DNA of 64,000 nucleotides from a bacterium (GCA_965213625.1 CBDBZU010000004.1:1568001-1632000); one strand, 5' to 3'. Counted from the first letter of the stretch, positions 45,127 to 63,127 are shown. The notes: a model not told the origin generated them from the sequence alone. Translations and numbers: made by a program.

Positions 45127-45178
45127 CGCAGTTGCCCGCATTTTCCGTCATCGTTCTCACGCTAGCAAGACATAAACT
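45127..45178 (+). promoter_or_regulatory. Putative activator-dependent late promoter 1 (lysis cassette)
   Basis: CGCAGTTGCCCGCATTT (45127-43), 29 nt, TAAACT (45173-78). Confidence 0.7.
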
Positions 45179-45246
45179 CTCCCGGTTTGAGGCGCGCAGC
45201 CTGCGAGCGGCGCGCGGGATTTCATTTATAGATGGAGAGGAGAGTC

Positions 45247-45396
45247 ATGTCTGAGAAAAATGATTTTGAAAAAAGAACGGACGCCGTGCTGTCGCGCTGG
45301 GCGAAGGGAAAACACACCCTCTTGCGCCTGGTCGCCGTGGGCGCATTTCTCGTGAGTCTGGGTTTTTTCGTGGGGGGTTATGTATGGCGGCCGTAA
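45247..45396 (+). CDS. 49-aa single-TM protein leading the lysis cassette
   Basis: Below the ORF-track cutoff; GAGGAG RBS; MSEKNDFEKRTDAVLSRWAKGKHTLLRLVAVGAFLVSLGFFVGGYVWRP; overlaps the next gene. Confidence 0.65.
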   Translation: MSEKNDFEKRTDAVLSRWAKGKHTLLRLVAVGAFLVSLGFFVGGYVWRP

Positions 45397-45620
45397 AGAA
45401 CGCGAAGTATCGCCCCGTCGAGATTTTCCGGGATAAATCCGGGCGGCATCGCTTCCGCGTGCGGGCGAGGAACGGAAGAATTCTGGCGTCGAGCCAGGCC
45501 TACGCGCGCCGCTCGGGTGCGCGCAAGGGCGCTGCGGCGCTCCTGCGTCTGCTTAAAGAAGCGGGCGGGATAGGGAACCTGTTTGAAGGGGAGGGCAGGG
45601 GATGCTCGCTGACGAGTTAA
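45384..45620 (+). CDS. YegP/DUF1508-like protein
   Basis: EIFRDKSGRHRFRVRARNGRILASSQAY. Confidence 0.75.
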   Translation: MAAVKNAKYRPVEIFRDKSGRHRFRVRARNGRILASSQAYARRSGARKGAAALLRLLKEAGGIGNLFEGEGRGCSLTS

Positions 45621-46015
45621 TAGAGGAAATCAAGCGCGAGGAGGGTTTCATGCCGGTAGTGTATATGGATAGCAAGGGAAAGAAGACCATCGGCTACGGT
45701 ACGCTGCTCGAAGACGGGATATCGCAAGCCGAAGCAGAGATGCTTCTTCGCCATCGCCTGGGCCTGATGGCCGGTGAACTCGAGCGCTCCTCTGTCGGCG
45801 TGGTCTTCGCGGGTCTCAAGCCAGGCGCCAAGCGCGCGGTTCTGAACATGGCCTACAACATGGGCGTGCCGAGTCTTCTGGGCTTCAGGAAAATGTGGGC
45901 CGCGCTCGCGAATGGCGATTATGCGCGCGCGGCTGAGGAGGCGCTCGATTCCGATTACGCGAGGGAACTCCCCGCGCGAGCGGGCCGGGTGGCCGAGAGC
46001 ATGAGGAGCGCGTGA
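45602..46015 (+). CDS. Phage-type lysozyme/endolysin (GH24, T4-like)
   Basis: EEGFMPVVYMDSKGKKTIGYG has E/D/T at T4 lysozyme spacing; NMAYNMG...F.KM...A.EALDS.YA...P.RA.R. Confidence 0.9.
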   Translation: MLADELIEEIKREEGFMPVVYMDSKGKKTIGYGTLLEDGISQAEAEMLLRHRLGLMAGELERSSVGVVFAGLKPGAKRAVLNMAYNMGVPSLLGFRKMWAALANGDYARAAEEALDSDYARELPARAGRVAESMRSA

Positions 46016-46437
46016 TGGCCTTTTTGGAAAAACTCATCGGCGGCGGCGTCATCACGGCGGCGGAGGGCGTCGCCAACGTCATCGACAAATTCGTCGAAAC
46101 GCCGGATGAGCGGCGCGCGGCCGAGGCGATAAAGCAGAAGCTGATGATGCGGCCCTTTGAGGCCCAGAACGAGATCAACAAGATAGAGGCCGCCCACCGC
46201 AGCGCCTTCGTCGCGGGCGGCAGGCCGTTCATCCTGTGGACCTGCGGCGTCTCGCTCGCCTTTTATTTCATCCCCCAGTATGCGCTCGGCGCATGGCTCT
46301 GGACGCGGCAGGTGCTGATGAGCGGCGATCTCGTGCCCTATCCCGTCTCGGCGGATGGGCTTCTCGAACTCACGCTCGGGATGCTGGGTCTGGGCGCGCT
46401 TCGCACCGTCGAGAAGCTCACGGGCAAGGCGCGGTGA
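46012..46437 (+). CDS. Holin of the 3TM type
   Basis: QNEINKIEAAHRSAFVAGGRPFILW...GMLGLGALRTVEKLTG; overlaps the lysozyme stop. Confidence 0.85.
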   Translation: MMAFLEKLIGGGVITAAEGVANVIDKFVETPDERRAAEAIKQKLMMRPFEAQNEINKIEAAHRSAFVAGGRPFILWTCGVSLAFYFIPQYALGAWLWTRQVLMSGDLVPYPVSADGLLELTLGMLGLGALRTVEKLTGKAR

Positions 46438-46464
46438 GGAACTCCTGCGCAGGGAGGGGGGGGC

Positions 46465-46681
46465 TGAAAAAGCCCCGCGGGTCGGGCCGAACCACTCCCC
46501 CTTGAGGGGGTTGTTGAAAAACCTCACAAAAGGAGCGCGGTGGATTTCACTCCCCCTCAAGGGGGGAGTGGTTATTGAGCGCTCTACAAGAGAAGAACGG
46601 TTTGGCCCGACCCGTAAGGATTTTTTCAACAATCCCTTGTCAGGGGGGTAGCAGCGACGCTCCTCGGCGAGGGCTTTTTCA
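46465..46681. repeat. Composite nested inverted-repeat element (MITE/REP-like)
   Basis: IR pairs 46465-75/46671-81 and 46478-93/46599-614, CACTCCCCCTTGAGGGGG pair, GTTGTTGAAAAA/TTTTTCAACAA; related sequence at 52972 and 58183-58504. Confidence 0.7.
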
Positions 46682-46700
46682 TCGGGCATTCCCCCGACCC

Positions 46701-47105
46701 TCACGGGCCGCTTTTTCTTTTTGTGGGTTTCGTCTCGATGTGCTCCAGGGGATGGTCGTGCACGATCTTGATCTGCTCGGGGAGGATAAAGGCGGCGGTG
46801 AACAGTACGACGGCGCCCAGGCAGGTGACGAGCAGCCCCGGCAATATCACTTTGAAGCCCGTGAATTCGGCCCCCGCGCTCTCGCGCGCCTCGGCGCGCG
46901 ACTGCTGGGTGATGAAGGCGCCCATCGCCAGGATGATGCCGCCCACGATGGCGGTCGAGATTCTCAGGAGGTTTTTCTCCTCCGCCAGGTAGGCGAAGAG
47001 CAGGATTTCCTCCTCCCCGTGGCCTGAGGCCGGCGCGTCTGGCAATCCCAGGAACCATAGCGAGAGCATGGCGAATGCGGTGGTAGTCGGCGCGCGAAAG
47101 CGCAT
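46701..47105 (-). CDS. Hypothetical membrane protein
   Basis: AAGGAGG RBS before ATG 47105; signal-like N-terminus plus two TM segments. Confidence 0.65.
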   Translation of the reverse strand: MRFRAPTTTAFAMLSLWFLGLPDAPASGHGEEEILLFAYLAEEKNLLRISTAIVGGIILAMGAFITQQSRAEARESAGAEFTGFKVILPGLLVTCLGAVVLFTAAFILPEQIKIVHDHPLEHIETKPTKRKSGP

Positions 47106-47165
47106 CAAACGTCCTCCTTCCGGCCATTGTGCAGCGCGCAAGTCTTTTTCTCAACGGAAAGGCTC

Positions 47166-47217
47166 CGCATTTGCCCGCATTTGCCGCACACCCCCAACCC
47201 GCGCCGCCTTGTATGTT
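47166..47217 (+). promoter_or_regulatory. Putative activator-dependent late promoter 2 (gp26/gp27-like genes)
   Basis: CGCATTTGCCCGCATTT (47166-82), 29 nt, TATGTT (47212-17). Confidence 0.72.
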
Positions 47218-47363: not shown

Positions 47364-47696
47364 GTGAACGAACTGGCGGCCCGCGTCCTGCGCGGCGACA
47401 TTTTGAAGACGCTGTATTACCAGGATGCCTTGCGCGCGGAATCGAGCGTGGGGAGTCTTCTCCTCTGGAGCGCGCTGCGCGAGGCGGGCCATCATGAAGA
47501 CGGCGCGCCCCTGGGCCGCGAGACGCTCGAGGCCTTCGTGGACGATCTGGCCGGGCGGGGTTTGGTGGAAAAGCGCACCCCGGGCGGGTTCGGCCGCCTG
47601 CTGACGGATTACGAGGCGCACCTTACGCGCAAGGGGCGCGGCTTGCTCGAAGGAGCCGTATCCGTCTCACCCGACATCCTCGTGGGGGATCTGTAA
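47364..47696 (+). CDS. Mu gp26-like winged-helix phage protein
   Basis: LRGDILKTL...DLAGRGLVE...AHLTRKGRGLLEG...PDI pattern; immediately upstream of the gp27-like gene; GAGGAGGTG RBS. Confidence 0.6.
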   Translation: MNELAARVLRGDILKTLYYQDALRAESSVGSLLLWSALREAGHHEDGAPLGRETLEAFVDDLAGRGLVEKRTPGGFGRLLTDYEAHLTRKGRGLLEGAVSVSPDILVGDL

Positions 47697-48268
47697 TGGA
47701 GAGGAGACGGGGCCGCAGATCGAAAGTAGTGGAATATGGCGCCGAGAAAATCGTCGATACCATGCTCGCCGAGGGGAAGACCTACCAGGAGGTGGCCGAG
47801 GCCTTCGAGAAGGAGACCGGGGAGAAGATAGCGCTCGGCTCCGTCGGGGCGCGCAACAACCGCCTGCTCGAGGGTATCCGCAAGACCAAGCGGGTGGAAG
47901 CCATGGTGGATGAGCTGATCGAGGAGGTCATGGCGTATGACGGCGAGGGCCGGGACCCGGGCGAGAAGGTGGCGGCGGCCGCCAGGCGGATGCTGATGAC
48001 CCAGGCGGTCGAGGCCGTCTCTCACATGGGGAAAGAATCCTTCGAGGGCCTCAAGCCCGAGAAACTGGCCCAGATGGTGAACGGGCTCGAGCGCAGCAGC
48101 ATCTCGGCCGAGAAGCTCAGGCTCCAGTACGAGGACGGCTTCGCCGCCGCCAAGATGGCTATCGTGAAGGAAGTGCGCGAGTCGTTCCGCGAGCATCCCG
48201 ATTTGATGGACCAGGTGTGCGAAATCGTCGAGGAGGCGACCCGAAAGCTCGAGGATCGGATCGAGTGA
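47696..48268 (+). CDS. Mu gp27/DUF3486-like putative small terminase subunit
   Basis: GRRSKV N-terminus, HTH-like GKTYQEVAEAF...IALGSVG, helical 190 aa; TAATG coupling to the upstream gene. Confidence 0.65.
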   Translation: MERRRGRRSKVVEYGAEKIVDTMLAEGKTYQEVAEAFEKETGEKIALGSVGARNNRLLEGIRKTKRVEAMVDELIEEVMAYDGEGRDPGEKVAAAARRMLMTQAVEAVSHMGKESFEGLKPEKLAQMVNGLERSSISAEKLRLQYEDGFAAAKMAIVKEVRESFREHPDLMDQVCEIVEEATRKLEDRIE

Positions 48269-48411: not shown

Positions 48412-48876
48412 ATGAGCACGTTTCCGTTCTTTTTTACCTTTGTGGACAAGGTGGAAGGAAACGGCTTCGTAGCGGATATAAGAATGCTGGGAACGCTCCT
48501 CGGGATGAAAGAGGACGATTCCACATGGATGTACGGCGTACAACCGGGTGGAATCGCCGCGACTGGACAAAACGAGGATGAGGCATTCTCCATCTTCCGG
48601 CGAACCTACACGTCCGTCCTGTTCGACATGGCGGAGGATGCCGACGATTTCACGACCTTCAAACAGCGAGTGGAGGTTTTCTTCAAAGAAATCTGTGAAG
48701 AGACGAAACAAGAATGGGATGAAGCCGTTGAAGCGGTGCGCCGGGGAGATATTGAAGCCGAAGGACTGGAAAAGAAAAACGCAGATAAGCACCAGCCCTA
48801 TGTGCAAGTAAGATCCGTCAAAAAACCCAAGGCGGGGCGCAACATGCTGGATGAACCAAGAGCCATCGCCGCCTGA
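48412..48876 (+). CDS. HicB-like antitoxin
   Basis: QPGGIAATGQNEDEAF resembles the HicB N-domain; adjacent to a HicA-like gene; AAGGAGG RBS. Confidence 0.5.
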   Translation: MSTFPFFFTFVDKVEGNGFVADIRMLGTLLGMKEDDSTWMYGVQPGGIAATGQNEDEAFSIFRRTYTSVLFDMAEDADDFTTFKQRVEVFFKEICEETKQEWDEAVEAVRRGDIEAEGLEKKNADKHQPYVQVRSVKKPKAGRNMLDEPRAIAA

Positions 48877-49131
48877 ATGGCTTCAAGCGGTCGCGTACAA
48901 CTAAGAAAAATATGGAATATGCTCAAAAGATGCGCGCCAGGATGCGTTGTCACGGAAAAGACGCATCACTATTGGATTCAATTTGAAGGCCGTACCTATC
49001 CTTCATTCCCAAAGGGAGCGCATGGGAAGGGAATTCGGGCGGAAATTGAAGTTGGCCATATCAGGAAGATGATTCGGCACCTACATATCGACATAGACTG
49101 TGCGAGGAATGAATTGCCGGAAGTGTATTGA
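48877..49131 (+). CDS. HicA-like toxin
   Basis: 84 aa, basic; KTHHYW...PSFPKGAHGK...EIEVGHIRKMIRHL. Confidence 0.55.
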   Translation: MASSGRVQLRKIWNMLKRCAPGCVVTEKTHHYWIQFEGRTYPSFPKGAHGKGIRAEIEVGHIRKMIRHLHIDIDCARNELPEVY

Positions 49132-49373: not shown

Positions 49374-51122
49374 ATGAGCGAGTTCAAGAGCGAGGCAAGA
49401 GACGGAATGCGCATCGACTGGGACGTGCCGGTCGAGATGGATGACGGCGTGGTGCTGCGCTGCGACGTTTACCGGCCAGACGACGACGGCGAATACCCCG
49501 TCATCATGAGCTACGGACCCTACTGCAAGTGGCTTCATTTACAGGACGGCTACCCCCACCAGTGGAGCCTGATGGTGAACGATTATCCCGAAACCGTCAT
49601 GGGCACGAGCAACAAATACCAGAACTGGGAGCTCGTCGATCCCGAGAAATGGGTGCCCGACGGCTACGCCTGCGTGCGGGTGGACTCCAGGGGCGCCGGC
49701 CGCTCGCCGGGCTATCTGGAAGTGTGGTCCCCGCGCGAGACCAGGGATTTTTACGACTGCATCGAGTGGGCGGGCGTGCAGTCCTGGAGCAACGGCATGG
49801 TGGGCCTGAACGGCATCTCCTACTACGGTATGAACCAGTGGCAGGTGGCCTCGCTCCAGCCGCCGCACCTGGCCGCCATGTGCGTCTGGGAAGGAGCGGC
49901 GGATTTCTATCGCGATCTCGCCCATCACGGCGGCATCGCCTGCCGTTTCTCGGACACCTGGTACCGCCAGGCCGTCGTACCCCGCCAGCATGGTAAGGGA
50001 AACCGCGGCATCAAGAGCCGCATTAACGGCGATTGGATATCCGGCCCCGCCAACCTGAGCGAAGAAGAACTCGCTTCCAACAGGAGCGATTTCGGCCAGG
50101 ATATTCTCGATCATCCCCTCGTGGATGATTACTGGAAAGCGCGCATGCCCGATTACTCGAAAATCAACGTGCCGCTCCTATCCTCGGGCAACTGGGGCGG
50201 TGTGGGTCTGCACCCCAGGGGCAACACGGAGGGTTTTGTGCAATCGGCCACCGACGAGAAATGGCTGGAGATGCACGGGCTGGAACACTTCACGGAGTTT
50301 TATACCGATTACGGCGTCGCGCTCCAGAAGAAATTCTTTGGGCATTTCTTAAAGGGCGAGGATACCGGCTGGACGGAGCAGCCCAAAGTCCAGCTCCTGG
50401 TGCGGCATCCGGGCGAGAAATTCGTGCCGCGCGCCGAGAGCGAGTGGCCCATCGCGCGCACGGAGTGGACGAAGTATTACCTCCATTCCGGCTCCGGCAC
50501 ATTCCGGGCGGAACCCCAGACCAACGAGCGGGAGAAAACCTACGACGCGCTGGGCGACGGCTTAATCTACATCTCGCCGCCCTTTGCCGAGGAAACCGAG
50601 ATAACGGGTCCCGTGGCGGCCAAGCTGTTCGTCTCATCGGATACGGCAGATGCCGATTTGTTCCTCACCCTGCGCGTCTTCACGCCGGACATGACCGAGA
50701 TCGTCTACCGGGGTGCTAACGACCCGCATACGCCCGTGGCCATCGGCTGGCTCAGGGCCTCGCACCGAAAGCTCGACGAGGCGCTCACGCTGCCCTACCG
50801 GCCCTACCACACGCACGATGAGATTCAACCTTTGACGCCGGGCGAGATATACGAGTTGGATGTCGAGATCTGGCCGACCTCCATCGTGATTCCAAAGGAA
50901 TACCGCCTGGCGATCAGCGTCCGCGGGCGCGATTACGTCTGGCCCGGCTACGAGCCGTCCGCGCCCAAAATATCGGGCCGCGTGTATTACGGCGTGGGGC
51001 CCTTTAAGCACGACCTGAAAGAAGACAGGCCGACGGAACTGTTCGGCGGCAAGGTGACGCTGCACACCGGCCCGTCGTGTCCGTCCCATGTATTGCTGCC
51101 TGTGATTCCGTCGAAAGGATAA
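49374..51122 (+). CDS. CocE/NonD family hydrolase (S15), copy 1
   Basis: DGVVLRCDVYRP, DSRGAGRSPG, GISYYG, GWLRASHR. Confidence 0.92.
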   Translation: MSEFKSEARDGMRIDWDVPVEMDDGVVLRCDVYRPDDDGEYPVIMSYGPYCKWLHLQDGYPHQWSLMVNDYPETVMGTSNKYQNWELVDPEKWVPDGYACVRVDSRGAGRSPGYLEVWSPRETRDFYDCIEWAGVQSWSNGMVGLNGISYYGMNQWQVASLQPPHLAAMCVWEGAADFYRDLAHHGGIACRFSDTWYRQAVVPRQHGKGNRGIKSRINGDWISGPANLSEEELASNRSDFGQDILDHPLVDDYWKARMPDYSKINVPLLSSGNWGGVGLHPRGNTEGFVQSATDEKWLEMHGLEHFTEFYTDYGVALQKKFFGHFLKGEDTGWTEQPKVQLLVRHPGEKFVPRAESEWPIARTEWTKYYLHSGSGTFRAEPQTNEREKTYDALGDGLIYISPPFAEETEITGPVAAKLFVSSDTADADLFLTLRVFTPDMTEIVYRGANDPHTPVAIGWLRASHRKLDEALTLPYRPYHTHDEIQPLTPGEIYELDVEIWPTSIVIPKEYRLAISVRGRDYVWPGYEPSAPKISGRVYYGVGPFKHDLKEDRPTELFGGKVTLHTGPSCPSHVLLPVIPSKG

Positions 51123-51147
51123 TTTCAATAAACACGAGAGGTGCGCG

Positions 51148-52893
51148 ATGAGAGGGCGTAAATCCGAAATAGCCGACGGCATGCGGATCGACTGGGAGGT
51201 TCCGGTCGAGATGGACGATGGACTCGTGCTTCGCTGCGACGTCTACCGGCCCATAGCGGAAGGCCGCTATCCCGTTCTGATCACCTACGGGATTTACGGG
51301 AAGTGGCTCCACTTCGAAGACGGCTATCCCGAGCAGTGGCGGCGCATGGTGGAGCAACACCCCGACGTCGCGGCCGGTTCCTCGAACAAATACCAGAACT
51401 GGGAGGTCGTGGACCCCGAGAAATGGGTGCCGGACGGCTACGCCTGCGTGCGGGTGGATTCGAGGGGCGCCGGCCGCTCGCCGGGGTATATGGACCCCTT
51501 CTCGGATCGCGAAACGCGCGATTTCTACGAGTGCATCGAATGGGCTGGGGTACAGCCCTGGAGCAACGGCAAGGTTGGCATCAACGGCATCTCCTATTAC
51601 GCCATCAACCAGTGGCAGGTCGCGTGCCTGAAACCGCCTCATCTCGTCGCCATGTGCGCCTGGGAGGGAGCGGCGGATTTCTACCGCGACATGAACTACC
51701 ACGGGGGCATCTACTGCACCTTCACCGAGAACTGGTATCAGAACAGGGGGCGCTCCAAACAGCATGGCCTCGGCGAGCGCGGCTACAAGAGCCGGGTGAC
51801 GGGCGATTGGGTATCGGGGCCTGACACGCTGAGCGAAGAAGAACTGGGTGCCAACCGCTGCCGCCTGGGAGCGGAGATGCGCGCGCACCCGCTCGATGAT
51901 GAATACTGGCAGGCGAAAACGCCGGACTGGTCCCAAATCGAGGTGCCCTTTTTATCTTCGAACAACTGGGGCGGGCAGGGGCTTCACCCGAGGGGGAATT
52001 GCGAGGCCTTCATGAACGCTGCCTCGGAAGAGAAATGGCTGGAGAGCCACGGCATCGAGCACTGGACGGAGTTTTACACCGATTACGGCGTGGCGCTCCA
52101 GAAGAAATTCTTTGGCCATTACTTGAAAGGCGAGGACACGGGCTGGAAGGAGCAGCCGAGGGTCCTGCTCCAGGTGCGCCACCCCGGCGAGAAATTCGTG
52201 GAGCGCGCGGAGAACGAGTGGCCCATCGCGCGCACGAACTGGACGAAGCTGTATCTCCATACGGAAGGCCACCTGCTCGGCGAGGCCGCGCCCGCCGAGA
52301 CTGGTTCGGCCACATATGCCGGCTTGAGCGACGGCGTCACGTTCGTCTCGCCCCCCTTGAAGCGCGAAACCGAACTCACGGGACCCCTGGCGTCCAAGCT
52401 GTGGGTGTCATCTGAAACCCAAGACGCCGACCTGTTCCTCGTCATCAGAGTATTCACGCCAGATTTCAAGGAAGTCACCTTTCAGGGCGCGCTCGACCCC
52501 AAAACCCCGGTCGCCCAGGGCTGGCTCAGAGCCTCGCACCGAAAGCTGGATGAAGCCCGCACGCTTCCCTACCGGCCCTACCACGCGCACGACGAGGTGC
52601 AGCCCCTGACGCCGGGCGAGATATACGAACTGGACGTCGAGATCTGGCCGACCAGCATCGTGGTTCCAAAGGGCCATCGCATCGCTTTGAGCGTCCGGGG
52701 GTGTGACTACGTCTATCCGGGCGGCATCACCCAGGGGCTGCCGAACATGCCCGCCGTCTTCTCGGGCGTGGGACCGTTCCGCCACAACGACCCGGTCGAC
52801 CGGCCGCCTGAGGTGTTCGGCGGCGAGGTGACAATCCACACCGGTCCCGAGCATCCCTCCCACGTGCTCTTGCCGATTATCCCGCCGAAATAG
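51148..52893 (+). CDS. CocE/NonD family hydrolase (S15), copy 2
   Basis: Same motifs (GISYYA); colinear paralog of copy 1. Confidence 0.92.
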   Translation: MRGRKSEIADGMRIDWEVPVEMDDGLVLRCDVYRPIAEGRYPVLITYGIYGKWLHFEDGYPEQWRRMVEQHPDVAAGSSNKYQNWEVVDPEKWVPDGYACVRVDSRGAGRSPGYMDPFSDRETRDFYECIEWAGVQPWSNGKVGINGISYYAINQWQVACLKPPHLVAMCAWEGAADFYRDMNYHGGIYCTFTENWYQNRGRSKQHGLGERGYKSRVTGDWVSGPDTLSEEELGANRCRLGAEMRAHPLDDEYWQAKTPDWSQIEVPFLSSNNWGGQGLHPRGNCEAFMNAASEEKWLESHGIEHWTEFYTDYGVALQKKFFGHYLKGEDTGWKEQPRVLLQVRHPGEKFVERAENEWPIARTNWTKLYLHTEGHLLGEAAPAETGSATYAGLSDGVTFVSPPLKRETELTGPLASKLWVSSETQDADLFLVIRVFTPDFKEVTFQGALDPKTPVAQGWLRASHRKLDEARTLPYRPYHAHDEVQPLTPGEIYELDVEIWPTSIVVPKGHRIALSVRGCDYVYPGGITQGLPNMPAVFSGVGPFRHNDPVDRPPEVFGGEVTIHTGPEHPSHVLLPIIPPK

Positions 52894-52971
52894 GGATTAT
52901 CCACAGGCGGCGGGGCCGGAAAGTTGATAAAGCTTGGGAAGCGAATTTGGATTGCGCGCACGCTTTTGAAG

Positions 52972-53056
52972 TTCACTCCCCCTCAAGGGGGAGTGATTTC
53001 TTATCAACAAAGGTATTTGGAAGGCTGCTAATCTGTAGGGCTTTTTAACAACCCCA
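52972..53056. repeat. Partial copy of the CACTCCCCCTCAAGGGGGAGTG palindrome element
   Basis: Matches 46547-46570; ends TTTTTAACAACCCC. Confidence 0.6.
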
Positions 53057-53213
53057 AGCAGGAAGTACTCACCGCCGCCACGTTTCTTCGGCCCATCTCC
53101 GCCGGTCTCCTTTCTTGACGCGCCGAAGCCTGTGTGTGAGAATTTTCCCATCACCACATTTCAAAGAATACGATTGCACACTGGGCCATAGATCTAACCG
53201 GGGAGGAAAGTCT

Positions 53214-54164: not shown

Positions 54165-54245
54165 GAGATCAAACGCGGCGCCGCGCGGCGGAGGCGGGGG
54201 AAATGATCCCTGTCTCTGCGCGCGTCCTCGCCTGAGGGGACGGAC

Positions 54246-55451
54246 ATGCCCATTCCACGCGACGTGCTCCAGGCCGAAATCGACAGGCGGTTGGCGAACA
54301 CCCGGCGGCTGATGGCGGAGCGCGATTACGACGCCTTGATCGTTTACGGGAACAACAAGCTCTCCGGCAGCCTGCGCTATCTCACCGATTACTTTCCCGA
54401 CCGTGCGGGGTGGATCAGCTTGACGACCACAGAGACCGCCATCGTCGACGGGGGCGCGGCCTTCATCACGCAGGATGATGTTCCCGCGCTCATGGTCGAT
54501 CCGGGCCTCATGCCGACGCGCGAGGTGTGCGTCCCGCGCATCGTGGCCGGGGAGGGGTTCTCGGCGAAAAAGGGCGACGGCCTTTCCGTCGAGAACATCG
54601 AAAAACTCATCCGAGACACCGGCGACGTGAAGCGCGTCGGTATCGAGACGTTCGACAAGTTCCCCGCACCTCTTTACGCCGGGATGCGGGAGACGTTCCC
54701 GGACCTCGAAATCGTGCGCTCGACCATCGTCGAGGAACTCCGGATGGTGAAGAGCGATTTCGATCTCGAGATGATGCGAAAGGCAGGCCGGGTCGCGGAT
54801 TTGGGCCATGAGACCGTCGCCGGCATCCTGAGTACGGAGGGCGTCGGCAAAACGGAGCTCGAAATCATCCGCGCCGCCGAACACGCGATGCGCTCCGCCG
54901 ACCCGATTTACGAGGATTCGTGCAGCAGCTCACCGAGCCTCATCTGCAGCGGCTACCCGGTGGCGGGCGCGCTGTTGCACATGCCGAATCCGGCCAAGGC
55001 CATCGAGCGCGGCAACGTCGTGCACTGGGACATCTGCATGCGGTTCGAGGGCTACCCGGTCGACTCCTCGCGCACGCGCGCCATGGGGCCGGTGACGGAG
55101 GTCCACCGGCGCGCTTATGAGACCATTCTGGAAATTCAGCGAACGGTCATCGAGGAGGCGAAGCCGGGCGTCTTAGCGAGCAAACTCGTCGACACGGCCG
55201 AGGCGATGGCCCGCGACGCCGGTTTCGATTTGTGGGACAGGTTCTTGGGCCACGGCCTGGGATGGGACATCCACGAGCGCCCCGACATGGGCATCGAGAA
55301 ACTCCCCCTCGAGGAGAACATGGTGCTCGCCGTCGAGCCGCGCATCGCTGTCGACAACACCTATCTGTTCGGCAACGAGGACATGGTGCACGTCACGAAA
55401 GAGGGCGGCGTCTCCTTTACGTCTTTCCCGAGGGAGCCGCTGGAGATATAG
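54246..55451 (+). CDS. M24 family metallopeptidase/amidohydrolase
   Basis: LRMVKS, WDICM...DSSRT, GHGLGWDIHERP, VEP, NED. Confidence 0.9.
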   Translation: MPIPRDVLQAEIDRRLANTRRLMAERDYDALIVYGNNKLSGSLRYLTDYFPDRAGWISLTTTETAIVDGGAAFITQDDVPALMVDPGLMPTREVCVPRIVAGEGFSAKKGDGLSVENIEKLIRDTGDVKRVGIETFDKFPAPLYAGMRETFPDLEIVRSTIVEELRMVKSDFDLEMMRKAGRVADLGHETVAGILSTEGVGKTELEIIRAAEHAMRSADPIYEDSCSSSPSLICSGYPVAGALLHMPNPAKAIERGNVVHWDICMRFEGYPVDSSRTRAMGPVTEVHRRAYETILEIQRTVIEEAKPGVLASKLVDTAEAMARDAGFDLWDRFLGHGLGWDIHERPDMGIEKLPLEENMVLAVEPRIAVDNTYLFGNEDMVHVTKEGGVSFTSFPREPLEI

Positions 55452-55559
55452 CGGCGCGCGCGCGGAGGATGTTCGCGCCCAAGGCCGTGGCGGTCGCGGC
55501 CGCCATTTGCGCCGCCCGAACCTCCCACTGGCCCGATTTTCCAACTGGAAGACTCGTCC

Positions 55560-57146
55560 ATGACGTCATCCCCCTCCAGTCCAGCCGAATCTCCCCCTGA
55601 AAGCGCGGCGGAGCGCCTCATTCTCGACATGCGCGGCATCGGCAAGCGGTTTCCGGGCGTCGTGGCGCTCGACGAGGTGGATTTCAGCGTCCGTCCGGGC
55701 GAGGTCCACGTGCTTCTGGGCGAGAACGGGGCCGGCAAGTCGACCATGATCAAGATCATCGCGGGCGTCGTCGAAAAGGACACCGGCGAGATGGTGTTCG
55801 AAGGCGGCGTCATCGAGAGGTGCTCGCCTGCGCTCACGCGGGAGCTCGGCATCAGCGTCATCCACCAGGAACTGAGCCTCGTGCGGCTGATGGACGTGAA
55901 GAGCAATCTCTTCCTGGGCCGCGATTTGAGGAGCGCAAACCGTCTGCTCGGGCGGCTGGGCGTGAGAGACGAGACGGCGATGGAGCGGCGCTGCCGGGAG
56001 ATTTTCACCGAACTGGGGATCGAGGTCGACCCGAACGCCGAGGTGTCGAATCTGAGCCTCTCGGACATGCAGTTTCTCGAGATCGCCAAGGCGGTCGCCT
56101 TCGATGCGAAAGTCATCCTGATGGACGAACCCACCTCGTCCCTGGGCCCCGGGGAGAAAGAAGCGCTCTTTGGCGTCATCGAGCGATTGACGGAGCGCGG
56201 CATCGGGGTGGTCTACGTCTCCCACACGCTGGAGGATTGCCTCGCTATCGGCGATCGCATCTCCGTCCTGCGCGACGGGCGCCACGTCGGGTCCATCGGC
56301 GCCGAGAATACCGAGGTCGACACGCTTATCCGCATGATGACGGGGCGCACCTTCAGCGAACGCTATCCCAGAATTTCGGGCAAGGTGGGCAAGGAGGTTC
56401 TCGAAGTCAGGAATTTCACGCAAACGGGCGTGTTCAGCGACGTGAGTTTCCGCGTCAGGCAGGGCGAGATACTGGGTTTTGCGGGATTGGTCGGCGCAGG
56501 CCGCACGGACTTGTTCCGCGCGCTCTTCGGCCTGGAGCGGCCCGACGGCGGCGAGGTGTTCATCGACGGCCAGCCGGTGAGAATCAGGAAACCCCGCGAC
56601 GCCATCCGCCACGGGCTTTCCTTTCTGACTGAGGATCGCAAGAACCAGGGCGTGTTCCCGCTCTTATCGGTGTTGGAGAACCTGCTGATCACCCTGTTCA
56701 ACTTCGGCCGGGAAAGCCGCTCGCGCAAGCTCACGCGCATTATGGGCTGCATTAACGGCGCAGGCGCAACGCACCTCTCGCGCGACTATGTGGAGCGGCT
56801 GAGCATCAAGGTAGCCTCCTTGACGGATCAGATCGCCCAGCTCAGCGGCGGGAACCAGCAGAAGGTGCTTCTCGCGCGGGGGATATCCACAGGCGCGCGC
56901 ATCGTCATTCTCGACGAACCCACCAAGGGCGTCGACGCGGGCGCGAAGGTGGAAATTTACCGGATTCTTGAAGAACTGGCGCAGCTCGGTGTGGCGATCA
57001 TCGTGATATCCTCGGAATTGCCTGAAGTCACGGCCATCTGCAGCCGCATCATCGTGATGAACGAAGGCCGCATCACCGGCGAGGTGCTTCGTGAGGACGC
57101 TGACGCGGAAACCATCATGCGCTACGCGACGGGCACCGCGGCCTAA
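55560..57146 (+). CDS. Sugar ABC transporter ATP-binding protein (RbsA-like)
   Basis: GENGAGKST, MDEPT, LSGGNQQK, LDEPTKGVD. Confidence 0.95.
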   Translation: MTSSPSSPAESPPESAAERLILDMRGIGKRFPGVVALDEVDFSVRPGEVHVLLGENGAGKSTMIKIIAGVVEKDTGEMVFEGGVIERCSPALTRELGISVIHQELSLVRLMDVKSNLFLGRDLRSANRLLGRLGVRDETAMERRCREIFTELGIEVDPNAEVSNLSLSDMQFLEIAKAVAFDAKVILMDEPTSSLGPGEKEALFGVIERLTERGIGVVYVSHTLEDCLAIGDRISVLRDGRHVGSIGAENTEVDTLIRMMTGRTFSERYPRISGKVGKEVLEVRNFTQTGVFSDVSFRVRQGEILGFAGLVGAGRTDLFRALFGLERPDGGEVFIDGQPVRIRKPRDAIRHGLSFLTEDRKNQGVFPLLSVLENLLITLFNFGRESRSRKLTRIMGCINGAGATHLSRDYVERLSIKVASLTDQIAQLSGGNQQKVLLARGISTGARIVILDEPTKGVDAGAKVEIYRILEELAQLGVAIIVISSELPEVTAICSRIIVMNEGRITGEVLREDADAETIMRYATGTAA

Positions 57147-57171
57147 GGTGGTTCGGTAAGGGAGGGGAGCA

Positions 57172-58179
57172 ATGAGCGGCGAAGGAAAGGCGGACAGCGG
57201 GCGAGGCGCCGCCGCAAAGAGCGGGGGATACAGTGTCTACTCCCTCATCGCGTCCGGTTTTTCCAAGTACGGCCTCATCCTCGCGCTCATCTTGTTGGTC
57301 GTCTTTCTCTCCATCACGGCGGAGAACTTCTTCACCGTCTCGAACATGATGAACATCCTGCTCCAGTCGTCTAACATCGGCATCATGGCGGCGGGTCTCA
57401 CGCTGGTCATCATCTGTGCCGAGATCGACCTCTCGGTGGCCTCCATCCAGTCGATGGGCGCGGTCGTCGTCGCCCTTCTGCTCAAGGAATACGGTGTGCC
57501 CATCGTTCCGGCGGTGATCGCCACGCTGATTCTTGGGGTGCTCCTGGGCGGTGTGAGCGGGGTGTTCGTGGGCTGGTTCGCGATTCCCGCCTTCATCCTC
57601 ACGCTGGCGATGGACAGCCTCGCGCGCGGGGGCGCGCTCATCCTGACGGGTGAGCAGTCCATCTTCGGCCTGCCCGAGGCGTTCAGCGTGGTGGGGCAGG
57701 GCTACCTGGGTCCGTTCCCCATGGCCGCCGTCATCATGGGCGTCGTCTTCCTGGCCGCGCACCTCATCCTCTCGCGCACCGTCCTGGGCACGAACATCTA
57801 CGCCGTCGGCGGCAACAAGGAGGCCGCCCGCGTCGCTGGCGTGAACGTCTTCGCCGTCAAGCTGTTCGTGCTCGTCTTCAGCGGCTTCTGCGGCGCGCTG
57901 GCGGGCGTGGTGATGGCTTCGCGCCTCATGGCCGCCCAGGCCATCATGGGCATGTTCGACCTCATGGACGTCATCGCCGCGGTCGTCATCGGCGGCGCCT
58001 CGCTGCTGGGCGGTGAGGGGCGCATCATCGGCACCGTCATCGGCACGCTCATCATCGCGTGCATCAGAAATGGCCTGAACCTCCTGGGTATAGCCGCCGA
58101 TTGGCAGTTGCTGGCGGTCGGGGGGATCATCATCCTCGCCGTCCTGCTCGACTACGTGGGGAAAAAGCGCACGGCTTGA
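57172..58179 (+). CDS. Sugar ABC transporter permease (RbsC-like)
   Basis: IDLSV, YAVGGNKEAARVAG, IAAVVIGGASL. Confidence 0.93.
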   Translation: MSGEGKADSGRGAAAKSGGYSVYSLIASGFSKYGLILALILLVVFLSITAENFFTVSNMMNILLQSSNIGIMAAGLTLVIICAEIDLSVASIQSMGAVVVALLLKEYGVPIVPAVIATLILGVLLGGVSGVFVGWFAIPAFILTLAMDSLARGGALILTGEQSIFGLPEAFSVVGQGYLGPFPMAAVIMGVVFLAAHLILSRTVLGTNIYAVGGNKEAARVAGVNVFAVKLFVLVFSGFCGALAGVVMASRLMAAQAIMGMFDLMDVIAAVVIGGASLLGGEGRIIGTVIGTLIIACIRNGLNLLGIAADWQLLAVGGIIILAVLLDYVGKKRTA

Positions 58180-58182
58180 GAC

Positions 58183-58504
58183 GGTTGTTGAAAAAGTCCT
58201 CGTCGGGGGACATTGCCTTTAGCGGGAAGGCCGCTTTCGCGCGAACCCCCGACCTCCCATGTCGGAAGCAACCCCCCCTACCCCCCCCTTGTCAGGGGTC
58301 AAACGCGAGTGAGGAACGAGCGTTTGCATAAGCCATTGACGAGAAACACATCGGCTCGCAAAACCTCCCTCTTCGGTCGGTTTTGACCCTGACAAGGGGG
58401 GGTAGGGGGGGGTGGGTTTCCAGTGGAGAGGTGCGTCCCCTCCATCCCTTGAAAAGGGTATTTTTTCAACAACTCCTTGTCAGGGGGGCTTCTTCAACAA
58501 CCCC
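58183..58504. repeat. Composite inverted-repeat element (MITE/REP-like)
   Basis: GGTTGTTGAAAAA...TTTTTCAACAAC ends; internal CCCCCTACCCCCCCTTGTCAGGG inverted pair; 58461-88 matches 46621-48 at 26/28. Confidence 0.7.
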
Positions 58505-58652
58505 GCGTAGGGCGGCCTTCAGGAGCGTCCTTGCGCGCCGAGGAGCGCTGGCCGCCGCCCGCATTTAGGGGTGGATATCCCCCCCGTTTTTGGCTTTTCC
58601 TCACGAGCCGCTGGTGTATACTGGCCTCTGGAACCGCCGCCGGAGGCGTGAG

Positions 58653-60506
58653 ATGTCCGAATCCAGCAATCCCGAGCCGAGCACCCAGGAGAAGCAGGGG
58701 TTTTACTGCTCCATCGTTTTCAAGAGCCTCATTCTCGTCCTGATCATTCTCATCGTCGCCATCGTTCCGATGTCCTACCGCTACTATCAGTCGAGCTACA
58801 ATTACGAGCTCAACGTGCTCTCGGCCAGGCTCGAGTTCATTGCCGAGCGCGGTTCCGCCTTGATTGATGCGGAAGCCGTTCACAGCCTGCGGCTGCCGAG
58901 CGACAAGAATACCCCCGAATACAGGGAGGTGCTCGCCGCGCTCAGGCGCATCAAGCGGAACTCGGGCGTGGACAACGCCATTATCATGCGCAGACGCGCC
59001 GATGGAAGCTACGGATACGTCGCCGCCGCGCACGACGGGTTCCAAATCGGCCAGGACGCCCATATCCACAAGCTCTTCCCGGCCACCTACAAGGCCACGA
59101 ACGACACCTGGAACAAGGGCGAGATGATGCGCTCCCGGCTCTTCGGCGGAAAGGTGGGGGACCGCGAGTTCGACAAGTTCTTGCAACTCAACACGCCGCT
59201 CAAGCTGAACGGCAAGGTGGTGGCCATCCTGGTGCTCAACAAGATTGCGAACCCCGTTGCCGAGCAGGTGGCGACGAACACCTTCAAGCTGCTGCGCTTC
59301 ACCATCATCCTGGTCGCCCTTGGCCTCATCCTCTTCTGGCTCATCTCCTCACGGATGCTGCGCCTGATCAGGAACCTAACGAGCGCGGCGGAAGAGGTGA
59401 GCCAGGGGAATCTCGACGTCACGGTTCCCGCTAAGAGGAGCCACGACGAGGTGGGCCGCCTGGCCACTTCGTTCGAGGGCATGATCGATGGCCTGAAACA
59501 GCGCGATTTTATCCGCGACACATTCGGACGCTACATCAGCAAGGAGATCGTGGACGAACTCCTGAACTCGCCCGATGGCCTCAAGCTCGGCGGCGAGGTG
59601 CGCGAGGTGACTTTCCTGGTCTCGGACTTGCGGGGGTTCACCGCGCTCTCCTCTCGCCTTGAGCCGCACGAGGTCATCGAGGTCGTGAACCGTTTCCTGG
59701 AGCCGATGGTGGACATCATCACCAGACACCGGGGCACGGTGGATGAGTTCCAGGGCGACGGTATTCTCGCGTTCTTCGGCGCGCCGCTCGCCGAGCCCGA
59801 CGACTCGGCCCGGGCCGTGGCCTGCGCCGTGGAGATGCAGCGCGCCCTCGTCGAAATCAACGAGGAGCAGCGCAAGCGCGGCATGCCCGATCTTCACATG
59901 GGGATCGCCATCAACACGGGCGAGGTGATCGTCGGCAACATCGGTTCGGAAAAACGCACCAAGTACGGCGCGATGGGCACGGCCATCAACATGGCCTACC
60001 GCATCGAGTCCTACACCGTGAGCGGGCAGGTGCTCATCAGTATGGATACGTATCAGAAAATGGCGGAATTCGTTCAGGTGGGCGATACCCAGGATCTGCG
60101 CTTCAAGGGGCTGGGTGAGCCGGTTCGCGTCTACGAGGTGCGGGGGATGTCGGGGCCTTATGCGTGTGAGATGCCCGAGGCCGCGCCCGAGGTGTTCGTG
60201 GACCTCGCTGCACCGGTCGAGGTGCGGATGTTCGCGGTCGAGGGGAAGACGGTGTCGGACGAAGCCGTGCGCGCCGGGGTCGAGCGTGCTTCCGAGAATT
60301 GTCTGGACGTGGAGGCGGATGCTCCCTTTGAGAGGAACGCGAATCTCATGCTGCGGATGGCGGAAGAAACGGAAGTTTCAGACGTCTACGCGAAGGTCGT
60401 CGAGGCGGACGGGGCGAGATTGATGCTGCGCTTTACCTCCCTGCCCGATGACGCCAAGGCGTATTTCGAAAAGGTCAGGGCATCAGCCGCGCAATCGAGC
60501 ACGTAG
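58653..60506 (+). CDS. Membrane-bound class III nucleotide cyclase (TM-sensor-TM-HAMP-cyclase-PilZ-like), possibly guanylate cyclase
   Basis: HAMP DEVGRLATSF; VSDLRGFT, DEFQGDG, KYGAMGTAINMAYRIES. Confidence 0.88.
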   Translation: MSESSNPEPSTQEKQGFYCSIVFKSLILVLIILIVAIVPMSYRYYQSSYNYELNVLSARLEFIAERGSALIDAEAVHSLRLPSDKNTPEYREVLAALRRIKRNSGVDNAIIMRRRADGSYGYVAAAHDGFQIGQDAHIHKLFPATYKATNDTWNKGEMMRSRLFGGKVGDREFDKFLQLNTPLKLNGKVVAILVLNKIANPVAEQVATNTFKLLRFTIILVALGLILFWLISSRMLRLIRNLTSAAEEVSQGNLDVTVPAKRSHDEVGRLATSFEGMIDGLKQRDFIRDTFGRYISKEIVDELLNSPDGLKLGGEVREVTFLVSDLRGFTALSSRLEPHEVIEVVNRFLEPMVDIITRHRGTVDEFQGDGILAFFGAPLAEPDDSARAVACAVEMQRALVEINEEQRKRGMPDLHMGIAINTGEVIVGNIGSEKRTKYGAMGTAINMAYRIESYTVSGQVLISMDTYQKMAEFVQVGDTQDLRFKGLGEPVRVYEVRGMSGPYACEMPEAAPEVFVDLAAPVEVRMFAVEGKTVSDEAVRAGVERASENCLDVEADAPFERNANLMLRMAEETEVSDVYAKVVEADGARLMLRFTSLPDDAKAYFEKVRASAAQSST

Positions 60507-60595
60507 GGTATTCTCGCTTCACACCGAATAGGGGTTTTGAACGAGTCCTGATTCCGTGATTTGGCGTATGGAGCCGACCGGGGAGGGGGTTCTTC

Positions 60596-60806: not shown

Positions 60807-60879
60807 GTGGTGGGCAATTGCGGCCGGGGAGAGTTCTTCAACAACCTCGAATAAAAGAGGCTGCGCATTCGCGTGAACG

Positions 60880-60912
60880 AAAAACCCCGGGGACGCATCC
60901 CCGGGGTCTTTT
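60880..60912 (-). terminator. Terminator of amt (possibly bidirectional)
   Basis: ACCCCGGGGA/TCCCCGGGGT stem with an A-tract on the left (U-tract on the minus strand). Confidence 0.8.
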
Positions 60913-60922
60913 CCTGTACGGC

Positions 60923-62206
60923 CTAGCGTTCGTAGGCCGATTCGTTGTGCATCATGAGGTCGAGACCGCCGGATTCCTCGTTGGCGTCGGCTCTCAGGCC
61001 CACCATGGCGTCCACGATTTTGAGCAGGATGAAGGAGACGACGCCCGAATAGACGAGCGTGGCGATGACGCTCACGAACTGGATCCAGAGCTGTCTGCCC
61101 ATGCCGACGCCCTCGGCGAAGCCGACGCCGCCGAATCCCTCGGCGACGAATACGCCGGTCAGTATCGCGCCGATGATCCCGCCGACGCCGTGCACGGTGA
61201 ACACGTCGAGAGAGTCGTCCACCTTGAGCACCTGTTTCATGTAGTTGGTGGCGGCGAAGCAGCCAAGGCCCGCTATTGCGCCGAGCAGCAGCGCACCCAT
61301 CGGCCCCACGAAGCCCGAAGCAGGCGTTATGCCGACGAGGCCCGCCACCATGCCGGTAACGATGCCGAGCACACTCGCTTTGCCGTGCTTGATCCACTCC
61401 GCGAACATCCATGCGAGAGCGCCCGCCGCCGAGGAGATGTGCGTCACGAGCATGGCCATGCCCGCCGCGCCGTCGGCCGCAAGCGCGCTGCCGGCGTTAA
61501 AGCCGAACCAGCCGACCCACAGGATGCCCGCGCCCGTCACCGCCATGGGCAGGTTATGGGGCAGCATGGCCGTGTTGGGAAATCCGTGCCTCGGTCCGAT
61601 CAGGAGGGCGGCCACAAGAGCAGCGACGCCGGAGTTGATGTGCACCACCGTGCCGCCCGCGAAATCGAGCGCGCCCATCTCGCCGAGCCATCCGCCGCCC
61701 CACACCCAGTGGGCCACCGGCGCGTAGACGAGGATCACCCAGGCGATGGAGAAGATGAACATGGCCGAGAACCGCATCCGTTCGGCGAAGCTGCCCACGA
61801 TCAGCGCGGGCGTGATGATGGCGAATGTGAGCTGGAACATGGCGAAGACCGTCTCGGGAATGTTGCCCGAGAGCGATTCCACGCCCACGCCTGCGAAGAA
61901 CGCCTTGCCCAGTCCGCCGATGAAGGCGTTGCCGGCTTCGAACACCAGGCTGTAGCCGACGATGAGCCAGACGATGGACACGGCGCAAGCGATGGAGAAG
62001 CACTGCATCAGCACCGAGAGCACGTTTTTCGCGCGCACGAGACCACCGTAGAATAGCGATAGGCCCGGAAGCGTCATGAACAGGACGAGGGCGGTCGACG
62101 TCAGTATCCAGGCGGTGTTCCCGGTATCGAGTTTATCGGCCGCGAATGCGACCCCCGGGGCCAGTGTAAGCGCCGTGGCCCAAAGGACCAACACAAAGCG
62201 TTTCAT
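60923..62206 (-). CDS. amtB: Ammonium transporter
   Basis: FQLTFAIIT, HWVWGGGW, DFAGGTVVH, WFGFNAGS, DDSLDVFTVHG. Confidence 0.95.
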   Translation of the reverse strand: MKRFVLVLWATALTLAPGVAFAADKLDTGNTAWILTSTALVLFMTLPGLSLFYGGLVRAKNVLSVLMQCFSIACAVSIVWLIVGYSLVFEAGNAFIGGLGKAFFAGVGVESLSGNIPETVFAMFQLTFAIITPALIVGSFAERMRFSAMFIFSIAWVILVYAPVAHWVWGGGWLGEMGALDFAGGTVVHINSGVAALVAALLIGPRHGFPNTAMLPHNLPMAVTGAGILWVGWFGFNAGSALAADGAAGMAMLVTHISSAAGALAWMFAEWIKHGKASVLGIVTGMVAGLVGITPASGFVGPMGALLLGAIAGLGCFAATNYMKQVLKVDDSLDVFTVHGVGGIIGAILTGVFVAEGFGGVGFAEGVGMGRQLWIQFVSVIATLVYSGVVSFILLKIVDAMVGLRADANEESGGLDLMMHNESAYER

Positions 62207-62579
62207 CTTTTTGAACCTCCTTTAGAAGTTGGAACAATAATCCGAAAAGTGTTTTCCGCTCAGGTTTGAGGCGCCGTCTTCCGCCGCGTGGAGGGAAATT
62301 TAATCAATCCCGCCACGTCCCAGCGGTGTTCAACCGACGTCTTCGGGCTTGATTCTCGTCGTGATTCGACGCATAAACGTATCTCCTTGAGATGGTCTCG
62401 CGCCCCGGTGGGCGCCGAAACCAGCCATTGAGTCAAGGAAAATAGGGATTCCTTGCGGGGGAAACCCCCAATCGTCTCCAGAACAGTCCTGGGCGTTGGA
62501 AGAGCTATCCCCTACTATACCACCAGCAGCACCGGGTGTGTAGCGTGCGCCCGATTTCAAAAGGAGCTTTGCGGACGCC

Positions 62580-63065
62580 ATGCCTTCATTCGACATTGTT
62601 TCAAGGACGGATTTACAGGAAGTCGACAACGCGATCAATGGGGTGCGCCGGGAAATCGCCCAGCGCTTCGATTTCAAGGGGTCGAAATGCGCGCTCGATC
62701 GGAAAGATACGGAGGTCACCCTGCTGGCCGACGACGATTTCAAGCTCAGGCAGATGCACGATCTGGTGCATACCCATTTAACGAGACGTAAGGTGGATCT
62801 GCGCGCGCTCGACTTCAAAGACCCCGAATCCGCCGCAGGCGGCGCGCTCCGGCAGGCCATTCTCGTGAAGCAGGGCGTGGATCAGGATTCGGCGCGAGAG
62901 ATCGTCAAGAAGGTGAAGGCGACGAAGATGAAGGTGCAGGTCGCGATTCAAGGCGATCAGCTGAGAGTGAGCGGCAAGAAGCGCGACGACTTGCAGCAGG
63001 TGATATCCCTCTGCCGGGAGCTCGACCTCAAACTCGCGCTTCAATTCGAGAACATGCGCGATTAG
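62580..63065 (+). CDS. yajQ: YajQ family nucleotide-binding protein
   Basis: MPSFDIVS, QRFDFKG, RVSGKKRDDLQ, QFENMRD. Confidence 0.95.
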   Translation: MPSFDIVSRTDLQEVDNAINGVRREIAQRFDFKGSKCALDRKDTEVTLLADDDFKLRQMHDLVHTHLTRRKVDLRALDFKDPESAAGGALRQAILVKQGVDQDSAREIVKKVKATKMKVQVAIQGDQLRVSGKKRDDLQQVISLCRELDLKLALQFENMRD

Positions 63066-63075
63066 CGCCTGAGCG

Positions 63076-63127
63076 CGCATTTCCCCGCATTTGCGCGTCA
63101 TGGCTCACAGGCCCCATCCCCTATATT
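63076..63127 (+). promoter_or_regulatory. Putative activator-dependent late promoter 3 (large terminase)
   Basis: CGCATTTCCCCGCATTT (63076-92), 29 nt, TATATT (63122-27). Confidence 0.72.

Follow-up and report, generated by a model that had tools for sequence, protein, structure and literature searches.

A tandem heptamer module with exact spacing to a -10-like hexamer precedes the islands of a probable phage-derived particle gene set in sponge-associated Nitrospinota

We analysed a 64,000-nt stretch of bacterial DNA (the window; C4:1568001-1632000 of the 4.13-Mb genome G000) that holds three islands of phage-type genes, each headed by the same short module: a doublet, that is, two directly repeated heptamers with a period of 10 bp, and then, exactly 29 nt further on, a -10-like hexamer, TAnnnT. 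The module is conserved at orthologous positions in a genus made up of sponge-derived metagenome-assembled genomes (MAGs) labelled Nitrospinota, and variants of it with the same spacing occur before the same genes in distant lineages. The modules are probably the operon promoters of a phage-derived particle gene set, fired together by a DNA-binding factor.

The first doublet (CGCAGTTGCCCGCATTT, 45127..45143) lies in front of a lysis island and is followed by TAAACT at 45173..45178; the second (CGCATTTGCCCGCATTT, 47166..47182), with TATGTT at 47212..47217, precedes an island that opens with a winged-helix protein and the small terminase subunit (TerS); the third (CGCATTTCCCCGCATTT, 63076..63092), with TATATT at 63122..63127, stands before the large terminase (TerL) and portal genes. 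All lie on the + strand, and each doublet is a putative activator site. The original prediction, made on the window alone, had given these positions and the 29-nt gap correctly for all three sites: the pattern CGCAKTTNNNCGCATTT (doublet-N29-TAnnnT) matches the window three times, always on the + strand, and was absent from 100 dinucleotide-preserving shuffles of the window (mean 0.00, maximum 0). It had also described the sites as intergenic, co-oriented with the phage genes, devoid of a good -35 and absent from the front of other genes, all of which holds in the window. The three sites are located in short intergenic gaps and point towards the downstream genes, none has a -35-like hexamer 17 nt upstream of the -10, and no other window doublet with up to two mismatches has nAnnnT at the same offset (+46). 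A lone CCCGCATTT at 58558 lacks both the distal repeat and a hexamer at the correct distance. If transcription is assumed to start about 7 nt past the hexamer, the heptamer centres fall near -55 and -45 and the conserved bases on their 3' side reach to about -37.

Three islands proved to be an undercount, as at least five carry the module in G000. One further copy, with the hexamer TAGATT, lies at C4:1642554, 10.5 kb past the window end, before genes for a protease-capsid fusion, an HK97-gp10-like neck protein and a tail tube protein. Another, with TATATT, is found 2.25 Mb away at C4:3893765, before a tail module of seven open reading frames (ORFs) that ends with one similar to tape-measure proteins. 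About 71 nt upstream of the capsid promoter doublet, an additional and weaker doublet, CGTATGTTACCGCATTT (L020:10483-10499), is kept across the genus.

The spacing is conserved at orthologous loci, as the original prediction had expected. With a doublet of at most two mismatches and TAnnnT at +46 as the criterion, the site upstream of TerL is present in 19 of 19 relatives (16 exact, two with one mismatch and one with two), each time with TATATT at the same offset, and the site upstream of the capsid gene in 19 of 20, the single miss being cut by a contig end. The lysis site was retained in all 15 relatives examined there, with TAGAAT, TAAACT, TAGGAT or TAGATT at the same offset, and the TerS-island site in 15 of 20, with TATATT, TATGTT or TATACT; in addition, G013 has a three-mismatch copy at the TerS island with the proximal repeat intact. 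In the alignment of the capsid-upstream regions, the doublet and the hexamer block CCTAGATT are the best-conserved intergenic blocks, and they remain so in the most diverged sequences.

At the genome level, 15 of the 18 other genus genomes first sampled contain 21-65 exact doublets; G010 has one, and G009 and G015 have none. Twelve genomes of other genera gave 0 exact doublets, and a reversed control pattern gave 0 everywhere. G009 and G010, with just 0-1 exact doublets, are also without the phage-derived cluster. G015 does carry the cluster, with one-mismatch doublets at its capsid and TerL genes; its 8-Mb genome is otherwise almost without CGCATTT doublets. A dense run of a different doublet, CGCATTTTTGCGCACTT, was observed at G015:C64:1269590-1290277, with about ten copies in 21 kb and more elsewhere in that genome.

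Outside the genus, five distant Nitrospinota/Tectomicrobia genomes carry a variant heptamer upstream of the capsid gene, followed after exactly 29 nt (counted by hand in G039) by TAGATT or TACATT, and the variant heptamer with its 29-nt gap stands before the large terminase as well. Within each of the six genomes compared (6/6), one heptamer type, CGCATTT or CGAATTT, stands at both the capsid and the TerL promoter, and so does one 3' pentamer, which is GCGCG in G000, CCGGT in G035, CCTGC in G036, CCTGA in G037, CCCGT in G038 and GAGGT in G039. Such covariation supports the idea of a single trans-acting factor that would co-evolve with its sites. The complete 3.7-Mb genome G035 has ten copies of the extended motif CGAATTTCCGGTAGTTGG, all in one orientation, in a 54-kb cluster, and just four similar sites lie outside it. 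The G035 promoters precede an M15 peptidase gene, a winged-helix-small terminase pair, the large terminase (broken by a stop), a pair of small genes coding for 154 and 84 residues in the window, a stand-alone receiver protein, the portal gene, a capsid-to-tube operon and the tail module, which in this genome is contiguous with the cluster. Because of the distant sites at the capsid and TerL genes and of this concentration in G035, the promoter code is a property of the phage-derived cluster and is older than the genus; its wide use outside the cluster is a feature of the sponge genus.

From this arrangement we infer that the module is a promoter and that its factor is an activator. Each doublet with its hexamer would serve one operon of a vertically inherited, phage-derived particle set that comprises lysis genes, small and large terminase, portal, protease-capsid, neck, tail tube and tail module, and that is broken up by host genes in a way resembling a gene transfer agent (GTA). 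The promoters would have a sigma-70-type -10 and no -35. A DNA-binding protein would sit in tandem on the two 7-bp direct repeats, which are one helical turn apart and thus on the same helix face, would also contact about five further bases, towards -37, and from this upstream site would recruit RNA polymerase, all islands firing together as one regulon. Factor and site would co-evolve, the heptamer and the bases after it being lineage-specific and the same in all islands of a genome. In the sponge genus the module would have spread to, or be common with, at least 70 other sites, mostly convergent units resembling small-RNA genes, and the regulon of G000 would be much larger than the phage genes. 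A dedicated, fast-evolving factor, and not a feature of the core polymerase, is suggested because the variants are lineage-specific yet uniform in each genome, because two congeners lack the motif, and because the G035 sites are concentrated in the cluster.

The sign of regulation is not given by sequence alone, and the doublet could conversely be the operator of a repressor or silencer acting on the particle genes and the small-RNA-like units, with the hexamer starting transcription unaided. Prophage-derived clusters are often kept silent, and several of the hexamers (TATATT, TATGAT) are near the -10 consensus. We consider such repression quite unlikely, since the whole of the site (-58 to about -37) falls upstream of the core promoter, no -35 is present, and promoters of that kind are normally weak unless activated; moreover, tandem direct repeats on one helix face beside the polymerase are typical of activators. 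Structured leaders, acting as attenuators or antiterminators, were also considered and rejected: the five leaders folded no better than shuffles (z +0.2 to -1.5).

In the whole of G000, the pattern CGCAKTTNNNCGCATTT has 40 matches (a hand count of the match listing). Doublets with up to two mismatches number 170, namely 35 exact, 44 with one mismatch and 91 with two, and nAnnnT is present at +46 in 25, 24 and 27 of them, respectively, the background rate being 4%. In the 79 doublets that have at most one mismatch, TAnnnT starts at +46 in 33, at +45 in four and at +47 in four, and at every other offset from 30 to 65 in at most two. The greater part of the copies lies in a repeated intergenic element. 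Some doublets precede ordinary genes, such as a dienelactone-hydrolase/asparagine-synthase/glycosyltransferase set and an acyl-CoA dehydrogenase gene, so that an occurrence before unrelated genes, which would have counted against the original prediction, was partly observed. The motif is not phage-specific in G000. None of the 46 transfer RNAs (tRNAs) of the genome stands behind a doublet; the genome also has a standard one-piece transfer-messenger RNA with the tag ADNELALAA and a tRNA-Sec gene (C4:107276-107636 and 1431748-1431843).

The 16S ribosomal RNA (rRNA) promoter of G000 (C4:709465-709527, L019) carries, like that of a few close relatives, a one-mismatch doublet at the same offset from its -10, upstream of a TTGACA -35, an 18-nt spacer and TACTCT, this core being conserved in 21 genus genomes. 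Together with the location of most doublets away from phage genes and with their position at about -58 to -42, which is that of UP elements, this promoter is what speaks for a reading without any dedicated activator, in which the doublet would be an intrinsic element (UP-like, bound by the pair of alpha C-terminal domains) or a site read by an alternative sigma factor and would mark strong promoters in this lineage. We regard it as unlikely. Two genomes of the same genus are almost without doublets yet have the same rRNA promoter core, and the doublet-like stretch of the rRNA promoter is degenerate in most genus genomes, with at most two mismatches and TAnnnT at +46 in 6 of 21. The heptamer and its 3' extension vary by lineage and are uniform in each genome, which would not be expected for the slowly evolving alpha subunit, and a gap of 29 nt far exceeds the known sigma spacers between -35 and -10. 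As to UP elements proper, the position fits, but the element is G+C-rich apart from ATTT and so does not share their A+T-richness. We rejected the rRNA promoter as a member of the regulon, given its conserved TTGACA and the degeneracy of the doublet-like stretch in most relatives; that stretch is probably a UP-like region.

Most doublets of G000 are part of a repeated intergenic element that measures about 250-500 bp. It has an AT-rich core with TTATCGATAAA-type repeats, on which two units, each a doublet with its hexamer, converge from either side. The left-hand unit has CAGAAT at its end, the right-hand one TATGAT or TATGCT, and ahead of the latter there are in some cases one or two TATCCT units more, at intervals of 100-145 nt. 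Extra tandem units, or tandem repeats of about 24 nt, are seen in some copies. Examples are found at C4:2195605-2195863 (L001:156-414), 1237758-1238080 (L003) and 410150-410685 (L002). An exact 14-mer of the AT core is present in 17 of the 23 genus genomes; G000 has about 45 exact copies, and for 60 of 106 selected doublets one of them is no more than 450 nt away. G007 has its own diverged version of the element behind its doublets. Behind most units no convincing ORF is present, an Rfam search of 19 loci with repeat-family units (E<=0.1) matched 16S rRNA only, and RNAalifold, applied to the repeat-family transcripts, gave just a 5-bp 5' stem for the CAGAAT units and nothing for the TATGAT units. 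The element is possibly a family of convergent small-RNA genes. Sigma-54 or extracytoplasmic function (ECF) sigma readings of the CAGAAT units and of the heptamers were rejected, as the spacings, judged by eye, are unlike the consensus spacings of these factors.

Some copies of the element are syntenic between species and others lie at synteny breaks. Half elements were located at C4:5391, 190148, 487582 and 4071582. At the three examined, genes for P4-type tyrosine integrases (L177:434-1609, L178:483-1187 and L179:425-1606; Arm-DNA-bind_3 and Phage_integrase), one of them truncated, start about 300-340 nt after the half element; the fourth place is a duplicate copy. In the half elements beside integrases the AT-rich core is replaced, an arrangement which suggests that mobile elements use the core as an attachment site, a role frequently played by tRNA and small-RNA genes.

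These features give some ground for seeing the doublets as the ends or relics of a formerly mobile intergenic element, either an attachment module or one like a miniature inverted-repeat transposable element (MITE), with a promoter that faces outwards or inwards, and the island copies as mobile promoters that were inserted by chance and kept without common regulation. In favour of such an origin are the proximity of many doublets to the AT core of an element with inverted doublet-bearing ends, the elements at synteny breaks in some relatives and the P4-type integrases beside the half elements. This explanation is nonetheless very improbable. Apart from the doublet with about 5 nt on its 3' side, the spacing and the hexamer, the phage-island copies have no sequence in common with each other or with the repeat families. 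They are conserved at orthologous places (19/19 and 19/20 relatives), and the capsid/TerL module is older than the repeat element, being present in distant lineages and in three genus genomes without the exact core 14-mer. MITE copies are alike across the whole unit and are flanked by terminal inverted repeats, a description that does not suit the phage-island copies; inverted ends with doublets are a feature of the composite intergenic elements elsewhere.

As to the factor itself, the first gene of the second island codes for a 110-residue winged-helix protein (PadR/MarR-like; 47364..47696, + strand), the sole protein with a DNA-binding fold that travels with the cluster. It has 38 homologues, with 56-96% identity to the query, and belongs to no Pfam family. 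Its AlphaFold model has a mean predicted local distance difference test score (pLDDT) of 74.5, and the best Foldseek matches are PadR, LmrR and MarR proteins (E 3e-3, TM 0.5-0.64). In the distant G035, a protein 68% identical to it is again encoded directly before TerS. The fold would suit an activator, but the doublets of G001 persist without this protein, and we keep it as a weak candidate. It may be the DNA-recognition partner of the terminase instead.

Several points weigh against the proposed mechanism. In a six-frame search of the whole genome, the Mor/C family (PF08765) gave no match at E<=0.01, with matches obtained in control genomes, and the Ogr_Delta family (PF04606) had no match in the genome either. 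G001, with the cluster and 29 exact doublets, lacks the 110-residue protein. At the TerS island no doublet with TAnnnT at +46 is detectable in 4 of 20 relatives (G001, G033, G007 and G015). The joint absence of cluster and doublets from G009 and G010 may be a single evolutionary event, the identity of the variants within a genome could be due to gene conversion instead of selection by a shared factor, and activation is preferred to repression solely on account of the missing -35. Finally, just 5 of the 76 hexamer-bearing doublets of G000 precede phage islands, and the factor may be a general host regulator without any special link to phage genes. The original proposal of one regulon gains support from the shared module, its conservation and its covariation; a scope limited to phage genes does not.

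The lysis island (45247..46437, + strand) is composed of a 49-aa ORF (45247-45396), a 78-aa ORF (45384-45620), an endolysin (45602-46015; Pfam Phage_lysozyme, 3.5e-11; phrog_7, 6.4e-20) and a holin (46012-46437; Pfam GTA_holin_3TM, 6e-12; phrog_3427, 2.4e-23). In the second island, the gene for the winged-helix protein is followed on the same strand by that of the Mu gp27-like TerS (47696..48268; Pfam Phage_Mu_Gp27, 6.1e-07; phrog_426, 5.3e-10) and by a pair of small genes coding for 154 and 84 residues (48412..49131), which is conserved with the phage-derived cluster and has no Pfam and no PHROG match. The pair is also found in the G035 cluster, with 43% and 40% identity and a copy of the promoter module of its own; judged by eye from sequence patterns, it may be HicB/HicA-like. 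The large terminase, N-terminal ATPase part (63179..64000, + strand; Pfam GpA_ATPase, 1.1e-18; phrog_675, 5.8e-37), belongs to an ORF of 352 residues that extends 237 nt past the window end. It is followed by a separate C-terminal ORF of 215 residues, with which it overlaps by ATGA (window 63179-64000; L020:1-881), and then by the portal gene. The open frame of the large terminase measures about 357-365 residues in most relatives, which suggests that the split is conserved in the genus; in G033 it measures 560 residues, and in G035 it has an internal TGA.

Host-type genes (49374..60506, + strand; Pfam) separate the second and third islands: two S15 peptidases, a sugar-type ABC transporter, an M24 peptidase and a HAMP-adenylate cyclase. 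No doublet precedes them, and they are outside the regulon. A YajQ-family gene (62580..63065, + strand; Pfam DUF520, 8e-62) ends 11 nt before the third doublet. YajQ proteins are known as a host factor for phage phi6 transcription and as cyclic di-GMP receptors; here the gene is counted as a neighbour only, and its position may be mere neighbourhood. Core metabolism fills the first 45 kb of the window, where aconitase, fumarase, glutamate synthase and superoxide dismutase are among the encoded proteins. Genes for signalling seem to accompany the cluster: the HAMP-adenylate cyclase gene (58590-60506) lies between phage islands in G000, and the G035 cluster holds two paralogue-like matches, on the opposite strand, and the gene for the stand-alone receiver domain behind a promoter module.

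All Pfam and PHROG families recognized within the islands are structural, packaging or lysis families, and several ORFs belong to no family. The annotated ORFs around the islands include neither an integrase nor a replication gene, and the flanking genes belong to core metabolism; a regulator or replication gene may be hidden among the family-less island ORFs. The capsid, large terminase and small terminase are each present in 21 of the 23 genus genomes as one full-length copy and in the same order, the two genomes without them being G009 and G010; additional short pieces of the small terminase are present in three genomes. The order of the islands is conserved, with host genes of varying length between them. 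Capsid proteins are 78-92% identical within the genus and have no internal stops, and the ratio of nonsynonymous to synonymous substitution rates (dN/dS) of the capsid gene is 0.09-0.19 against ten relatives. In other Nitrospinota and Tectomicrobia MAGs, capsid homologues reach 58-70% identity. IMG/VR contains no close relative, and the best match of the capsid in an isolated phage is 32.6% identical; a true phage relative as the carrier of the activator was therefore dropped from consideration. The single copy, the synteny, the interruption by host genes and the purifying selection make the cluster look like a domesticated, GTA-like element, a better fit than a decaying prophage, and the original argument for maintained function over decay gains from the same data.

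If the modules do act as proposed, the exactly spaced promoter code would offer a sequence handle on the control of a particle system in an uncultivated sponge-associated lineage, and it would pick out the entire regulon in any related genome. The covariation of promoter variant and lineage opens a direct route to the factor, by correlating DNA-binding proteins with the heptamer variant. GTA-like elements would be extended to a further phylum, with a bearing on gene exchange within sponge microbiomes; among the literature listings and abstracts consulted, no paper links gene transfer agents to Nitrospinota or Tectomicrobia. The presence of the code at dozens of small-RNA-like loci would represent an unusual takeover of a phage-type promoter by the host, or the reverse. 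A broader picture, which we put forward tentatively, as conceivable though doubtful in its entirety, is that of an ancient and hitherto undescribed GTA-like system in Nitrospinota/Tectomicrobia whose 5-10 scattered operons share one private code (tandem heptamers-N29--10) and a co-evolving reader, the code having been copied to about 50 convergent small-RNA-like pairs that are also integration sites. Particle production would then be accompanied by a genome-wide small-RNA programme, and the AT-rich cores between convergent promoters might mark the chromosome for packaging.

Among known systems, the late (Plys, PI, PP and Pmom; C-dependent) and middle (Mor-dependent) promoters of phage Mu are similar in serving dispersed operons with a -10, a poor -35 and an activator site just upstream; a -10 and a poor -35 with one and the same upstream site are found at five islands in G000 and at ten sites in the G035 cluster. 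The gene order, from lysis through a Mu-gp27-like small terminase to the large terminase, is also reminiscent of Mu. The analogy with C and Mor drawn in the original prediction does not extend to family membership: the heptamers are directly repeated with a period of 10 bp, around a centre near -50, whereas the site of Mu is a dyad near -43.5 overlapping the -35 region, and no Mor or Ogr/Delta protein was found in the genome. In addition, the large terminase is of the gpA type and the capsid is a protease-capsid fusion, unlike those of Mu. The P2 Ogr and P4 Delta systems, which have zinc-finger activators, differ likewise, as neither their TGT-N12-ACA dyad near -55 nor a PF04606 match is present.

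The lambda CII promoters (TTGC-N6-TTGC) have in common with the module two short direct repeats one turn apart and no usable -35, and the doublet does contain TTGC-N6-TTGC when its spacer begins with G. The CII repeats straddle the -35, whereas the repeats described here lie about 15 bp further upstream, and the first TTGC is often TTCC in G000. OmpR/PhoB boxes and the SARP sites of Streptomyces are also 7-bp direct repeats with a period of 10-11 bp, without a -35 and read in tandem by winged-helix proteins; they overlap the -35, unlike the doublet with its gap of 29 nt to the -10, and the stand-alone receiver behind a module promoter in G035 is without a DNA-binding domain.

There is also a likeness to RcGTA, regulated by GafA and CtrA, and to the Caulobacter GTA with its GafYZ, in that a vertically inherited cluster of phage structural genes is accompanied by dispersed loci for lysis and tail parts. 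The vertical-inheritance features of GTAs, namely single copy, synteny and purifying selection, are all found here, as is a holin of the GTA_holin_3TM family. The system differs from known GTAs in its phylum (Nitrospinota/Tectomicrobia, represented by MAGs), in the splitting of the cluster into at least five operons by host genes and in its unrelated promoter motif. GTA particles take up host DNA largely at random and cannot pass on their own complete gene set; the present system would be GTA-like by its genes and their inheritance. Of 24 sequencing runs listed, two labelled 'viral metagenome' hold part of the stretch (0.25 and 0.16 of the sampled words), which carries no weight for particle formation. 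Set beside these systems, the module would represent activator-type control of late promoters, in a variant that is itself new and is attached to a probably new GTA-like element.

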